DNA from: a virus
Taxonomy: Duplodnaviria > Heunggongvirae > Uroviricota > Caudoviricetes
DNA: 19,442 nt
IMG/VR virus record: IMGVR_UViG_2609459832_000003
Location: 1-19,442 of that record
Strand: one strand, 5' to 3'
The notes below the pieces were generated by a model that was not told the DNA's origin, made no database searches, and worked only from the letters and a program-made list of their open reading frames with translations. The translations under genes were made by a program, and so were the position numbers. This document shows positions 3,608 through 8,528 of this stretch, piece by piece. The stretch's first letter is position 1. Each line of letters begins with the position of its first letter.

Positions 3608-4686
3608 CAGAACGGGTCCTCCTGTACTCTGGCTTTTTTCTTTTTCCGCGCGCCGGGAGCCTCGGGTTCAGGCAGATAAGCATCAGGCGGGCCGACACGG
3701 ATTTCCGTCAGGGTGCCGTTCTGGTCCTGAGTAAACGTGACTTCCGAGACAAGCAGTTCGGTATTGTCGAAACCACAGACCGGATCAAAGACAATCACCC
3801 GCTGGTTGGGCTGCCACAGCGTACCGTTACCCTGTCGCCAGCCCTGCACCACATAGGTGGTTTCATCCGTCCGCGCCGCCCGTTGTCGGGCTTCAAAGTC
3901 AGCACGGGCAATACAACCTGCCCCCGTAGCCTGCCCTGTCTGCCTGATATACATCGGACGGTAACGGGCAATAAATGCGTCCTCTGTGCGGGCCCTCAGC
4001 GCGGTGGTGGTGGCCTCACCGAAATCATCGTCGTTTCCGGCACGCTGCCCCGCCACCTGGTAAACAGAAAACCGCTCCCGGACACTCTTCTCCGTATCGC
4101 AGGAAAGGATGTTTTCCCCGAGCACCAGCGCAGTATGCGCCCGCGTTGAGCCAATACCGCCAATCACCAGCCTGCCGTGCGGGTCGTCGTAAGCCAGTGC
4201 CTGCTGCTGACCGAGTATTTTGTTGATTACCTCAATCACCGTTTCACCATGATCGGGCTGGACGTCAGGAATAACACCCGACGGCGCACCGCTGTTCACC
4301 ACCTCAATGCCGAAGGGCGCAGCAAGCGCCTGCGCAATCTGTACCAGCGATCGTCCGTTAAACTGTGTCGGTTCGGCTGCACAGTCAATCAGGTCAGCAG
4401 TCAGACTACGTCCGGCAATACCGGTGCTGACCGAACGGGCATCGTAACGAACGGGGGTCGCCTCCACCCAGCCGGTGATCACCAGTTCATCACCAATCAG
4501 CACCTCCACTTTTGAACCGTTTTTAATGCGCGGCTGAAGCGTGGTGATACCCTCACCCCCCGGCCACTGGCGGGTGATCTCCACACTGAAATCCCGTGCC
4601 AGCCGTTCAATACCGGCACCGATGCGCACCGATGTCCAGCCATTCCACTCCCGGCCATTTACCCGTAGCGTGACATTGTCGTTCAT
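3607..4686 (-). CDS. Tail/baseplate hub protein (Mu gp44 'P' / P2 gpD-like)
   Basis: 359-aa ORF immediately after the DNA-circulation gene (ATGA overlap at 4683-4686), as in Mu gp43-gp44. Confidence 0.7.
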   Translation of the reverse strand: MNDNVTLRVNGREWNGWTSVRIGAGIERLARDFSVEITRQWPGGEGITTLQPRIKNGSKVEVLIGDELVITGWVEATPVRYDARSVSTGIAGRSLTADLIDCAAEPTQFNGRSLVQIAQALAAPFGIEVVNSGAPSGVIPDVQPDHGETVIEVINKILGQQQALAYDDPHGRLVIGGIGSTRAHTALVLGENILSCDTEKSVRERFSVYQVAGQRAGNDDDFGEATTTALRARTEDAFIARYRPMYIRQTGQATGAGCIARADFEARQRAARTDETTYVVQGWRQGNGTLWQPNQRVIVFDPVCGFDNTELLVSEVTFTQDQNGTLTEIRVGPPDAYLPEPEAPGARKKKKARVQEDPF

Positions 4687-6011
4687 TGCACTGGCACCTT
4701 CAGAGGGATCACCGGCACAAAGCCGGGATGCGTAATGGCATTACGCCGGATAATGTCCTCGTCACGCGCCGCGTTATCAAACCAGGTCGCCGCCAGCACC
4801 AGCGCGGGTAAAACCTCATCCGGTGTGCGCTGAATGATCCGTGCAGACTGTTCAAGGCGCGTGTTGATATCCGCATTCAGATCTGCTTTCACCCGGCGCA
4901 GCGCCAGAAACAGCGCATCACTGGTTGTACGGGACAACTCCTTATCAATTGCCGTATTCAGTGTGTCGCGAATGTCGGTCAGTTCTTCCCACGTCGGCAG
5001 GTCAACCGTGTTTTTCACCGCCGGTGCATTGTTCAGTGCCGGATGCGTGACGGAAGGCCAGCCAGTGCTCTGCGCAGGTGTTGTTGCCTGCCCCACTGTG
5101 GCATTCTGCATCACTGCGGAAGTTGTTGGCGCAGGCAATCGGGTGACGGCATACGCCGCTTCGCTGATTGCGGTCGTACGAAGGGTGCTGGCAACCACGT
5201 TACGCTGCTGCGTCGCCGTGGCGGTAGTTTTACTGTCCGTTTTCCAGATGCCGCGCGGTTGCAGATCGCTGCCGAGGCTGACACCGGAAAGCGTTTTGAT
5301 CATGGTGACAAGGTCGCTGGCGTTACCATAAAGGCGTTTCCCGGTACGCCACATTTTCTGCACCTGCTCAACGAAATTTTTGCCTGACGATGGTGGCGGC
5401 AGAAGTACCGAGATATCCCCCTGCAACAGCCTGGCAGCATCCGATACGGCAGAATCCACCACTTTCATCGCATCAGAAACATACCCAAGCATTGTGCTGG
5501 CATTACCTACGACGTCGTTCTGCACAAAATCTGCCACGCCATCGATACTGAAACCACTGAAGCTGTCACTGATGCAGTCATCCAGTGCAGAACAGGATGA
5601 CATCAGCGTCTGCGCCGTCGCCGCACCTGAAGTGGGGTAAGAGAGTTCTCCCGCTTCGACAAACTTCAGGTCAAAGCGGACAATACGCCCTTCGCTCTTC
5701 GATGTGCTGACCCGAACCTCCCCGTCAACACAGACTTTCAGCTCACCGTATGTCGGATGGACAAGCGTGCCGGGACCGGGTTTATTCAGCGCGTCAATCA
5801 GGCGATCGCGCTGGTCAAAGCAGTCATCTCCCACCACATAAGCCGTGATGGACGGGCGGAAAGTGATTTTCCCCAGGTCTTCGGTATAGGGTTTGTCACG
5901 GTTCGGGTATTCGTGCGTTTCCACACGACGACCGGTTCCCGCACTTTCTTCTTCAACCTTAAACGGCACGCCGCGAAATGACGCGTCCTGAAGTCTGTCT
6001 TTCCACGTCAT
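4683..6011 (-). CDS. DNA circulation protein (Mu gp43 'N' family)
   Basis: N-terminus MTWKDRLQDASFRGVPFKV...GRRVETHEYPNRDKPYTEDLG matches the conserved DNA-circulation N-terminal domain. 442 aa. GGAG Shine-Dalgarno 6 nt upstream of the ATG at 6011. Confidence 0.8.
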   Translation of the reverse strand: MTWKDRLQDASFRGVPFKVEEESAGTGRRVETHEYPNRDKPYTEDLGKITFRPSITAYVVGDDCFDQRDRLIDALNKPGPGTLVHPTYGELKVCVDGEVRVSTSKSEGRIVRFDLKFVEAGELSYPTSGAATAQTLMSSCSALDDCISDSFSGFSIDGVADFVQNDVVGNASTMLGYVSDAMKVVDSAVSDAARLLQGDISVLLPPPSSGKNFVEQVQKMWRTGKRLYGNASDLVTMIKTLSGVSLGSDLQPRGIWKTDSKTTATATQQRNVVASTLRTTAISEAAYAVTRLPAPTTSAVMQNATVGQATTPAQSTGWPSVTHPALNNAPAVKNTVDLPTWEELTDIRDTLNTAIDKELSRTTSDALFLALRRVKADLNADINTRLEQSARIIQRTPDEVLPALVLAATWFDNAARDEDIIRRNAITHPGFVPVIPLKVPVQ

Positions 6012-6026
6012 ATAAACTCCGGATAC

Positions 6027-6082
6027 AAAAAACCCGCCAAATCTGCTTTGTCAGTTATTTACAGCGCAGAAGATGTGGCGGG
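6027..6082 (-). terminator. Rho-independent terminator at the 3' end of the AT-rich moron
   Basis: On the minus strand, CCCGCCA (rc of 6076-6082) pairs with UGGCGGG (rc of 6033-6039), with further AUCU/AGAU pairing inside, followed directly by U6 (rc of the A-run 6027-6032). It lies 20 nt after the moron stop codon and just before the gp43 ribosome-binding site. Confidence 0.6.
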
Positions 6083-6101
6083 AATCTAATATTTTTAATT
6101 A

Positions 6102-6596
6102 CTATCTGAGTTGAACATCAATGGAATAAACATCACCACTCTTTATAAATTTAGAATCTGTCCTTTCATCAAAAGATTCAAATGACTGTACATTTAAAAA
6201 CTTTTTCATTTTATTTTCAAAAATACTTTCATTAACACCAGTTAAATATTTGAATGCTCTACCAGCAAGGACCTCATTACTTAAATCCATTGTGTTTTTA
6301 TTGTCTTTGAAAAACCAAACAATAACCTTTTGTGGGCATGATGGATTATAAACAGATATATAAAACTGCGGCTCATATTTTTCATCAGCATCATCACTGA
6401 GCATTTCTTCAGAAGATAATTCTCTTCTGAATTCATATTGCCGCTTAGTGATTCCTTCATCCTTTATTATCTCTTGCTTAACTGGTGCAATACCTATAGA
6501 AGAGATTAATTCTGACTCATTAAAGTTGAACTTACACTCTTCCGCAGCCAAGTTAAAAGATAAAAGTGCAGATATAAAAAAAACAAAGATACGCAT
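6102..6596 (-). CDS. Hypothetical secreted (signal-peptide) protein of unknown function, encoded by an AT-rich moron
   Basis: Complete ORF, stop at 6102. Longest ORF starts at 6614 (MIEGMIM...), but the ATG at 6596 has a GAAGGG Shine-Dalgarno 6 nt upstream and gives a textbook signal peptide: MR + IFVFFISALLSF + NLA/AEE. Very AT-rich codon usage unlike all neighbours. Two Cys in the mature part. No family recognised from memory. Confidence 0.7.
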   Translation of the reverse strand: MRIFVFFISALLSFNLAAEECKFNFNESELISSIGIAPVKQEIIKDEGITKRQYEFRRELSSEEMLSDDADEKYEPQFYISVYNPSCPQKVIVWFFKDNKNTMDLSNEVLAGRAFKYLTGVNESIFENKMKKFLNVQSFESFDERTDSKFIKSGDVYSIDVQLR

Positions 6597-6626
6597 AATC
6601 ATCCCTTCAATCATTTGTAAGGAATG

Positions 6627-6658
6627 ATTATATTAACTACTTAAAGCTGAAAAGCCAA
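6627..6658 (-). promoter_or_regulatory. Candidate sigma70-type promoter for the moron gene
   Basis: On the minus strand: TTGGCT (rc of 6653-6658), 17-nt spacer, TAATAT (rc of 6630-6635), overlapping a perfect TATAAT (rc of 6627-6632). Sits in the 81-bp AT-rich gap between the tape-measure stop and the moron ORF. Predicted start site would give a ~25-nt leader to the 6596 ATG. Confidence 0.35.
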
Positions 6659-6695
6659 ATCATGCCAGACAAAAACACATTAATCATTTTGTACA

Positions 6696-8528
6696 CTACC
6701 TGAACCGCGTATAGCCAACATCATGGCTGACATCAAAACCGCTGGATCGCGTTTCCATAACCCGCATACCCGGAGGCGAATTCACAAAAGAGACCTTGAT
6801 CTCACCATCAACTTTTGGCACAAAAGCTTTGTTAATCATGAAGGGATTCGGGCCTGTGGCATCGGAGGCGTTGTTTGACTGAGCCGGATCTACCGCCGGA
6901 TAAGGTGTGTATCCCCGCGCCGGTATTCCCGTCCCATAAGCATCATAAGCACCCGCGCCCCACTGCGCAGAGTTAATGGCATCGACCGTGTCACCGGAAC
7001 TGTCGGTAAACCACTCAATAATGGGCTTCAGCTTGTCCCACATATCCTGAAACCACTTAACAACCGGCCCCCAGTTATTGATCACCATTCCCAGCGGCGA
7101 CCAGGCAAAAACTTTCTTAAGGAGTTCCCAGCCAGCCTCAAAATAAGGACCAATGGTTTCCCAGAGCTTCTTAAAATAAGGTCCGACAACATCCCAGTTA
7201 GTGATAATTAATCCCGCAGCCAGAGCAATCGCCGTCGCAATCATGCCAATCGGCGTCATCGACATGATCCTGCTGACAATACTGATGGCACCGCCCACGC
7301 CCATCAATCCCAGTTTCAGAATCGCAAGACCGGCAGCAAGCCCGACGATGCCGCGAATAACCCGGGGATTTTCATCCGCAAACTTCGTGAATTTTTCCCC
7401 CAACTCCCCCAGCCATTGCGTGATATTTTTGGCGTCACCAGAAAATGCGCCGCCAATAGCCGCAAGGCCGTTAGTTGCGGTCCCTGTCATTGCCTCCCAC
7501 AGATTGGACAGCGTACCAAGCTGTGCCTGAACACGTTTATTCAGGCTGGCCTGTTTATTCATCTTCTGCTGGATCTGATCGTAACCATCCTTTCCTTTAT
7601 CGATCAGAGCATTGACCACCTGAAGGGTTTCGGCATCATCACCAAATATTGCCTTAAGTACACCTGTTCGCTTAACGTCGGTCAGTTTTCGCAGCTTTGC
7701 CAGTTGCTTAAACATGTTATCAAGACCGCCAAAACTCCCTTTGCCGTCAGTAAAATCGAGCTGCACTCCGAGTTTCTGGCGGGCCATGACTTTATTGACG
7801 TCCCTGATTTTCTTAACGCTTAATCCGGACTGGATAACTTTTCGCAGGGCGTTACCTGCCGACTCCCCGTTCATCCCCATCTGATCCATCATGACGCTGA
7901 TGGGGGCAAGGCTCTGTGCAGCCTGAAGACCGTCCTTGTTCACCATCTTCAGAACAGAGCTGGTTTTAGTGAAGAAGGACAACATGTTGGTATCGTCAAC
8001 GCCCAGATAAAACGCCTTCTGGATAGTGTCGAACAGCCCCATCATGTCTTCTGACGCCGTTCCGGTAGCATCCTGCATCTTTGCGGCAAACTCGGCAGCC
8101 GCTTCCGGTGTTTTTTTCAGTTGTACCGCAAGATAAGCTGTCGCTTTACCCACACCGCCAAGAATGTTTTCTGCCGGGATCCCCTGACGCACCAGCATCT
8201 GCATCATGTTCTGGAAATCAGCCGTTGTACCGGGTAGCTGGTTACCCAGGCCAATAGCCAGTTTATTGATGTCCTGAAAGCGCTTTCCAACCTCGCCGTT
8301 CGCATCCATCATGGCGACTTTCAGCCCGGTGGCGGCGTTTTCCTGATCGGCATAAGATTTCAGGGAAAGCGTCAAACCCGCTGCCAGTCCGCCACCAAGC
8401 GCCAGCCCACCCTGTGACGCTTCTTCCGCCTGGCGTTTAAATCCCCGGATTTTCTTTTGCATTTTCGACAGCGCGGGAGAAAGCCTGTCGACACCGGTGA
8501 TCAACGCCTTAAGCTCAAATTCAGCCAT
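6696..8528 (-). CDS. Tail tape measure protein
   Basis: 610-aa ORF after the chaperone/frameshift pair. Central hydrophobic stretch and periodic aromatic residues (NWDVVGPYFKKLWETIGPYFEAGWELLKKVFAW...WFQDMWDKL) are typical of tape-measure proteins. Gly/Ala-rich. Confidence 0.85.
   Translation of the reverse strand: MAEFELKALITGVDRLSPALSKMQKKIRGFKRQAEEASQGGLALGGGLAAGLTLSLKSYADQENAATGLKVAMMDANGEVGKRFQDINKLAIGLGNQLPGTTADFQNMMQMLVRQGIPAENILGGVGKATAYLAVQLKKTPEAAAEFAAKMQDATGTASEDMMGLFDTIQKAFYLGVDDTNMLSFFTKTSSVLKMVNKDGLQAAQSLAPISVMMDQMGMNGESAGNALRKVIQSGLSVKKIRDVNKVMARQKLGVQLDFTDGKGSFGGLDNMFKQLAKLRKLTDVKRTGVLKAIFGDDAETLQVVNALIDKGKDGYDQIQQKMNKQASLNKRVQAQLGTLSNLWEAMTGTATNGLAAIGGAFSGDAKNITQWLGELGEKFTKFADENPRVIRGIVGLAAGLAILKLGLMGVGGAISIVSRIMSMTPIGMIATAIALAAGLIITNWDVVGPYFKKLWETIGPYFEAGWELLKKVFAWSPLGMVINNWGPVVKWFQDMWDKLKPIIEWFTDSSGDTVDAINSAQWGAGAYDAYGTGIPARGYTPYPAVDPAQSNNASDATGPNPFMINKAFVPKVDGEIKVSFVNSPPGMRVMETRSSGFDVSHDVGYTRFR

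Follow-up and report, generated by a model that had tools for sequence, protein, structure and literature searches.

The moron concept of Juhala and Hendrix was defined for phages HK97 and HK022, and examples include HK97 gene 15 as well as bor and lom of lambda. The gene described here, which we refer to as the moron, resembles these lambdoid morons in being an additional late-region gene that is absent from collinear relatives, has a lower GC content and encodes a product predicted to be exported, and in having a promoter-like site before it and a hairpin with a U run after it, in a phage type reported to be Q-antiterminated. It differs from them in being no recent pickup, since it has co-diverged with its flanks across several enterobacterial genera while still being AT-rich, and also in that its terminator is common to phages lacking the gene, its protein family has no known function and its promoter is a candidate only. 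Among the marks by which morons are recognized, we found presence or absence in collinear phages, deviant composition and a downstream factor-independent terminator (the one common to gene-less phages); as for a promoter of its own, we found an 8/12 match at chance level with a -10 hexamer kept in 4/6 lineages. We use the term moron as in PMC3851460. The moron described in the SfIV paper is a different one, located next to Q, and our literature search found nothing on the present gene, on phage SKA5 or on morons in the tail region of SfV.

A second parallel comes from phage T4, where the read-through RNAs of gene e (lysozyme) and of I-TevI hide the ribosome-binding site (RBS), and a promoter located in the 5' arm of the hairpin yields a translatable RNA (PMC3014915). 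The moron shares with these genes a predicted hairpin that would sequester the RBS in read-in transcripts, together with a candidate promoter within the DNA of the 5' arm: a stable hairpin pairs the Shine-Dalgarno (SD) sequence and the AUG with the leader (6632-6619 with 6607-6594), the -10 hexamer overlaps the arm, and for a predicted +1 at 6623 the computed ddG is 5-8 kcal/mol. In T4 the internal promoter is of the gp55 late type and it is early and middle RNAs that are silenced, whereas here a host sigma-70 promoter would act in lysogeny and late RNA would be kept silent; moreover, the T4 cases are experimentally proven and the present one is predicted only.

An accessory gene in the tail module of SfV-like prophages

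The window (the whole stretch of 19,442 nt that was analysed) carries all of its genes on the minus strand, in the order terminase, portal, protease, HK97-type capsid, sheath, tube, tail tape-measure protein (TMP), DNA-circulation and baseplate, and represents the structural arm of an SfV-like prophage whose head is of the HK97 type and whose contractile tail is of the Mu type. The moron ORF (6614/6596-6102) is flanked by the TMP and DNA-circulation genes (Table 1). By direct reading of the minus strand, the TMP gene stops with TAG at 6698-6696, leaving a gap of 81 nt (6695-6615, 28% GC) in which a tool scan for terminators found no minus-strand terminator-like site. A 701-bp stretch around the candidate promoter is 100% identical to E. 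coli UTAK-3. In the UTAK-3 prophage (NZ_CP157160.1 2373658-2398358, L062), whose cassette is identical to that of the window, PGAP flagged the small terminase and tail terminator genes as frameshifted and YmfQ as truncated, and the prophage adjoins a truncated ydfJ; it may be defective although its moron ORF is intact.

Table 1. Coordinates of the features discussed in the text, in window positions.
Feature	Position	Strand	Basis or detail
TMP gene, late gene 5' of the moron	6696..8528	-	Pfam PF10145
-35-like hexamer TTGGCT (4/6)	6653..6658	-	Direct reading; allele census
-10-like hexamer TAATAT (4/6; T1, A2, T6 present), best candidate -10	6630..6635	-	Direct reading; aligned in four lineages
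Perfect TATAAT	6627..6632	-	Direct reading; anti-start-codon part of the hairpin 5' arm
Predicted transcription start zone, +1 near 6623, within the hairpin 5' arm	6618..6625	-	Usual 7-nt distance from the -10
Leader hairpin	6594..6632	-	5' arm 6632-6619 (UAUAAUCAUUCCUU) with 3' arm 6607-6594 (AAGGGAUGAUUAUG)
Shine-Dalgarno GAAGGGA, 5 nt 5' of ATG 6596	6602..6608	-	Direct reading
Moron ORF, 164 aa, N-terminal signal peptide (cleavage between MRIFVFFISALLSFNLAA and EEC), two invariant Cys, phrog_8976	6102..6596	-	PGAP start, WP_032220455.1
Hairpin with U run, intrinsic-terminator-like	6027..6082	-	CCCGCCA (6082-6076) with UGGCGGG (6039-6033), then U6 (6032-6027)
SD GGAG of the DNA-circulation gene	6020-6017	-	Read from sequence
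Mu N-like DNA-circulation/tail protein gene, late gene 3' of the moron	4683..6011	-	Pfam PF07157

In-frame ATGs are present at 6614, 6602 and 6596 on the minus strand. The first-pass annotation had favoured 6596, and the homologues bear this choice out, since they are 164 aa long and start with MR followed by a hydrophobic segment (MIR in clade B); PGAP makes the same call in UTAK-3. A GGG or GGAG block in the SD region is kept in all clades. In the homologues the predicted signal peptide ends in A, ahead of EQC, and on its sequence the product is a secreted protein of phrog_8976 (PHROG 8976, unknown function). It matched no Pfam, NCBIfam or PADLOC entry, a PDB profile search returned no match, and no similarity in sequence or fold to described families of anti-phage defence or superinfection exclusion was found; the AF2 model shows a confident alpha/beta fold (pLDDT 87). 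In 5.8 billion proteins this small family forms 13 clusters; every source labels it hypothetical. Going by its location only, we would guess at a periplasmic role in the lysogen, either in superinfection exclusion or in envelope modification.

The cassette is absent from SfV, SfI, SfII and SfIV; SfV, SfI, SfII and vB_EcoM-689R6 align to both flanks only, and the same cassette is present in phage SKA5 (97% identity). We found it in 85 of 5,426 complete E. coli genomes (~1.6%), with an empty junction of the SfV type in 556, and the protein occurs also in prophages of Shigella sonnei, Salmonella, Kluyvera, Kosakonia and Atlantibacter. Homologues at 42-68% identity were found in Kosakonia, Kluyvera and Atlantibacter, in metagenomes and in 46 viral contigs, invariably with a TMP gene on one side and, on the other, a DNA-circulation gene belonging to the same type of phage. 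Homology to SfV covers the first ~20 nt past the TMP stop (to ~6674) and is found again from the 3' half of the terminator hairpin onwards, so that ~6673-6040 is insert-specific DNA and both the -35 and the -10 hexamers lie within it.

The GC content of the moron is 31%, versus 52-56% in the flanks (local values of 27-34% versus 52-60%), and the same contrast is found in all 11 related lineages (31-42% versus 45-58%). Because the gene has co-diverged with the flanking proteins, its divergence (53-62% identity) tracking theirs (65-87%), we consider it an old resident of the phage lineage and not a recent import; its AT-richness seems to be maintained, through amino-acid composition, H-NS targeting or something else. 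The Atlantibacter prophage carries two additional ORFs (506 and 93 aa, L010:5980-7778) between its DNA-circulation and baseplate-hub genes; they have no Pfam match, and the two-ORF segment adds a further accessory insertion to the tail module.

Candidate promoter hexamers and their conservation

The first-pass annotation had proposed that the gap upstream of the moron holds a plausible sigma-70 promoter, TTGGCT-17-TAATAT with an overlapping perfect TATAAT, and the minus strand reads as described for the two elements, for the 17-nt spacer (TTTCAGCTTTAAGTAGT), for the TATAAT (which overlaps TAATAT by 3 nt) and for the 81-nt gap. The -10 hexamer TAATAT ends 33 nt 5' of ATG 6596, and a start near 6623 would give a leader of ~27 nt. 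Compared with the canonical sigma-70 promoter (TTGACA-17-TATAAT), the site has the right layout (a spacer of 16-18 nt, here 17, and A2 and T6 in the -10, here together with T1), the TTG of the -35 and a leader of suitable length with a good SD; it differs in that the match is weak, at 8/12 (4/6 + 4/6), and in having no extended -10, no evident UP element and, in nearly all clades, a pyrimidine at the predicted +1. The -35 is weaker still in nearly all copies: the TTGGCT allele was found in 3/85 cassette-bearing E. coli genomes and in 0/34 other fetched copies, the remaining 82/85 E. coli genomes and the other fetched copies having TTGGGT (3/6), which lowers the full match to 7/12. We also considered and rejected an extended -10, since TG precedes neither TAATAT nor TATAAT, and a sigma-54 promoter (TGGCAC-N5-TTGCW), for which TGGCATGATTTGGC at 6669-6656 falls 1 nt short of the required spacing and the GC element depends on the allele, most alleles having GG.

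To rank the site, we scored all placements on both strands of the 19.4-kb window with an approximate PWM (hexamer frequencies taken from the literature), in which TTGGCT-17-TAATAT reached 9.3 bits and rank 11. Among dinucleotide shuffles of the 28%-GC gap, 25% reached the 9.3-bit score, 32% held an 8/12 site and 8% held a perfect TATAAT, meaning that, judged by gap shuffles, the sigma-70 match in the local sequence alone does not exceed the chance level. Promoter prediction, which had been suggested as a check, did not bear the site out, the consensus scan (tool, 9/12 threshold) listing nothing in the TMP-moron gap, where the site has 8/12. Comparable PWM matches also occur inside coding DNA. 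TTGAAA-17-TTAAAT within the moron ORF (~6220-6192, minus strand, sense) and TTCAAT-17-TATATT on the opposite strand, facing the TMP gene (~6606-6634, plus strand), score equally well or better, and spurious matches of this kind are typical of AT-rich foreign DNA.

The equal matches in 25-32% of gap shuffles, the failure of the scan to list the site and the equal or better matches in coding DNA (including the one at 6220) all favour the view that the gap has no functional promoter, that AT-rich foreign DNA has produced the hexamers by chance, that the gene is transcribed with the late operon only and that the conserved block is a hairpin tuning or limiting translation in the late mRNA. The lack of a terminator upstream of the moron fits this view as well. 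We nevertheless consider it rather unlikely, partly on account of what is conserved between lineages.

We sorted the upstream gaps into six sequence lineages, A to F, where A is the E. coli type including the window and F is the most distant homologue (L060, 42% identity). The gaps are hardly alignable between lineages except for a few blocks. The aligned -10 block reads TAATAT in the E. coli type, TACTAT in L006 and L013, TAAGAT/TAATAT in L010 and L056, and TAACAT in L046, L048 and L054, so that TAnnAT is kept in 4/6 lineages (nine sequences, clades A-D). Within these nine sequences T1, A2, A5 and T6 are invariant and positions 3 and 4 variable, which, at the level of sequence, is the pattern expected for a -10 element. 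Positions 4-6 pair with the start codon in the leader hairpin (see below), so part of the conservation may come from RNA structure; T1 and A2 lie outside the stem, and RNA pairing does not account for their invariance in four lineages, which counts against an explanation by chance and hairpin alone. The same is true of the TTG, found 5' of the -10 at 17 nt (clades A and B) or 18 nt (clade C and L054), across spacers that cannot be aligned; in L046 and L048 the -35 is degenerate. TAnnAT ends 36-38 nt 5' of Arg codon 2 in 10/12 sequences, with a chance of 1.6-5% per sequence, although these conservation statistics are soft, the lineages being few and related by descent. One of the ten, in L060, is probably coincidental, as its TATAAT encodes conserved TMP residues.

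The remaining lineages depart from this arrangement. In clade E (L004, L058) the -10 is absent at the aligned position. These two sequences, of the Kosakonia type, have in common an identical 25-nt block, GACGTGATAGTTTTATGTAAAACGA (L004:3940-3970, L058:2450-2480), which holds the extended -10-like TGATAGTTT ~50 nt 5' of the ATG. In L060 (2440-2510) the gap after the TMP stop is only 12 nt, which suggests translational coupling to the late gene and not an intergenic promoter, in keeping with late-operon expression only. Taken together, the conserved -10-like element and the TTG at the right spacing go part of the way towards making the case for a weak host-type promoter. The proposal of a plausible sigma-70 promoter thereby finds partial support in the -10, kept in four lineages, and in the TTG at 17-18 nt, kept in three lineages and in L054, one branch of the fourth; its match to consensus, 8/12, is not above chance.

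The overlapping TATAAT fared differently. It has the top PWM score (10.9 bits, rank 2 in the window), and if it were the working -10, with TTTTCA at 15 nt or no -35 at all, transcription would start at ~6620-6618, the whole 5' arm of the leader hairpin would be removed, and the RNA, as calculated for a 5' end at 6620, would have the most open RBS. This arrangement appears very improbable to us: TATAAT is 20 nt from TTGGCT, the sole alternative -35 is TTTTCA, promoters rarely have a 15-nt spacer, which is strongly disfavoured, and there is no TG to make an extended -10. The perfect hexamer is moreover limited to the E. coli clade, the same columns reading TATCAC, GATTGT, CATTAC and similar elsewhere. 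Since TATAAT is complementary to AUUAUG, allowing for one G·U pair, in the leader hairpin, its presence is accounted for without a promoter role, and we do not count it as a promoter element. Stops in all three frames (TAG, TAA, TAA) fall within 11 nt at 6629-6639 on the minus strand, overlapping the -10 region, and are probably a by-product of AT-richness.

Leader hairpin and downstream terminator

The leader hairpin has a dG of -16.5 kcal/mol (z -4.37), and 0/200 shuffles were as stable. Its 3' arm consists of the SD and the AUG, and an inner stem of 3 bp pairs 6617-6615 with 6610-6608. TAATAT pairs with the AUG through its last three bases, the stem extending further downstream, and this overlap, like the significance of the hairpin itself, agrees with a conserved block that would serve translation control in the late mRNA and no promoter. 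Equivalent stems in clade D reach -13.6 and -17.2 kcal/mol (z -2.75 and -4.0), where a different SD (AGGAGUGG) is accompanied by a matching anti-SD; clades B and C have weaker stems that are individually not significant, leaving the hairpin significant in clades A and D only. RNAalifold predicted the same stem from the nine sequences. In the consensus stem, 79% of cells are paired, compared with 34-61% when the partners are slid; six stem pairs are altered on both sides, and the covariation score was exceeded by 10/500 shuffles. With so few lineages, and with a structure taken from one of the very sequences compared, we grade this support as modest. The hairpin was also considered as a terminator of the TMP gene and rejected, its stem being AU-rich and its U8 run beginning ~10 nt past the stem.

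We calculated the cost of opening the RBS region (6610-6590) in RNAs with different 5' ends, obtaining 13-16 kcal/mol for 5' ends from 6700 to 6632 (12-15 kcal/mol for long RNA), 7.0 kcal/mol for a 5' end at 6623 and ~5 kcal/mol for one at 6620. A start ~7 nt past the -10 (~6623) falls in the 5' arm of the hairpin, and in the E. coli clade the RBS of an RNA begun there would be 5-8 kcal/mol cheaper to open than that of a long RNA. The corresponding difference is 3.4-5 kcal/mol in clade D and L054 and ~0 in clades B and C.

The pairing of a U-rich anti-SD (UUCCUU) through G·U pairs opposite AAGGGA, the stability of only ~-5 kcal/mol of the shortened stem and the enteric hosts would also be compatible with a regulated translational switch, for example an SD occlusion resembling a FourU thermometer, that acts on any transcript carrying it and to which a promoter would be secondary. 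We hold this to be a slim prospect. Known thermometers are far less stable than the full stem (-16.5 kcal/mol), and the stem is weak or non-significant in clades B and C. Nor did the region match a relevant Rfam family: a search of 5900-6800 returned nothing relevant at E<=1, only two chance snoRNA matches far below the gathering score.

Downstream of the ORF, the terminator-like hairpin has a dG of -24.6 (z -2.9). The tool scan reported a terminator-like site at 6036-6020, which we rejected as a sub-fragment of the true hairpin, whose loop is too long for the scan and which was confirmed by folding. Other clades have a compact ACCCGC-TTCG-GCGGG-T7 at the same place 3' of the ORF, the core being kept in every clade; the loop of the E. 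coli clade is expanded by ~35 nt (6040-6075, minus strand) with an inner helix of its own, in place of the 4-nt TTCG loop of the other clades. SfV and SfII, which lack the moron, carry a homologous CCCAC-TCCG-GTGGG-AT6 at the same place (L002/L003 ~1330-1355), with a compensatory G:C to A:T change between their stem and that of the moron-bearing phages, and the SfII hairpin is annotated as a terminator by its depositors. Because these moron-less phages carry the homologous hairpin, the terminator belongs to the TMP/DNA-circulation junction and is not private to the moron. Either the moron was lost from SfV and SfII by deletion, or it was inserted just upstream of an existing terminator. The first-pass annotation had described a complete promoter-gene-terminator cassette; the insert is indeed accessory and its ORF is followed by a hairpin with a U run, but phages that lack the gene have the terminator too.

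A proposed transcript start and mode of translation of the moron

The model that we favour, which at this stage we put at slightly below an even chance, combines a weak sigma-70 promoter in the gap with an own transcript that would be translatable and a late read-through RNA that would be occluded. The promoter would be TTGGCT (TTGGGT in most copies)-17-TAATAT, with a start near 6623, and would be embedded in the 5' arm of the hairpin that covers the SD and the AUG. In a lysogen it would drive low-level transcription of the moron, halting at the hairpin and U run at 6082-6027 and leaving the baseplate genes silent; an RNA begun at this promoter would be missing most of the 5' arm and could be translated. 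A late RNA coming from the TMP gene would contain the whole hairpin and be translated poorly, the ribosomes on the TMP gene stopping 64 nt upstream of the stem, presumably too far away to unwind it. The late genes of SfV-type phages are under the control of a Q antiterminator (PMC3851460). Because these phages encode it, late transcription is able to pass the terminator, and under the model the Q-antiterminated late transcription would ignore it as well.

One consequence would be a gating of moron translation by the transcript start, such that the protein is translated in lysogeny only, with the Q-antiterminated late RNA silent, and that this arrangement is conserved in at least two diverged SfV-like lineages. 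This stronger proposal strikes us as doubtful. Transcription with the late operon only, the main competitor of the favoured model, sits poorly with the nature of the product: since functional phages such as SfV do without it, the secreted protein is unlikely to serve as a part of the virion or of its assembly.

In other respects the moron is an ordinary cassette, and its candidate hairpin-embedded promoter is its one unusual feature. If the promoter is inactive, the locus is an accessory late gene with a structured leader. If a hairpin-embedded promoter does operate here, it would illustrate a way of keeping a gene specific to lysogeny even though the gene sits mid-way in a late operon and has no terminator upstream. 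And if the promoter works, lysogens would make the secreted protein, which would then be a candidate lysogenic-conversion or superinfection-exclusion factor.
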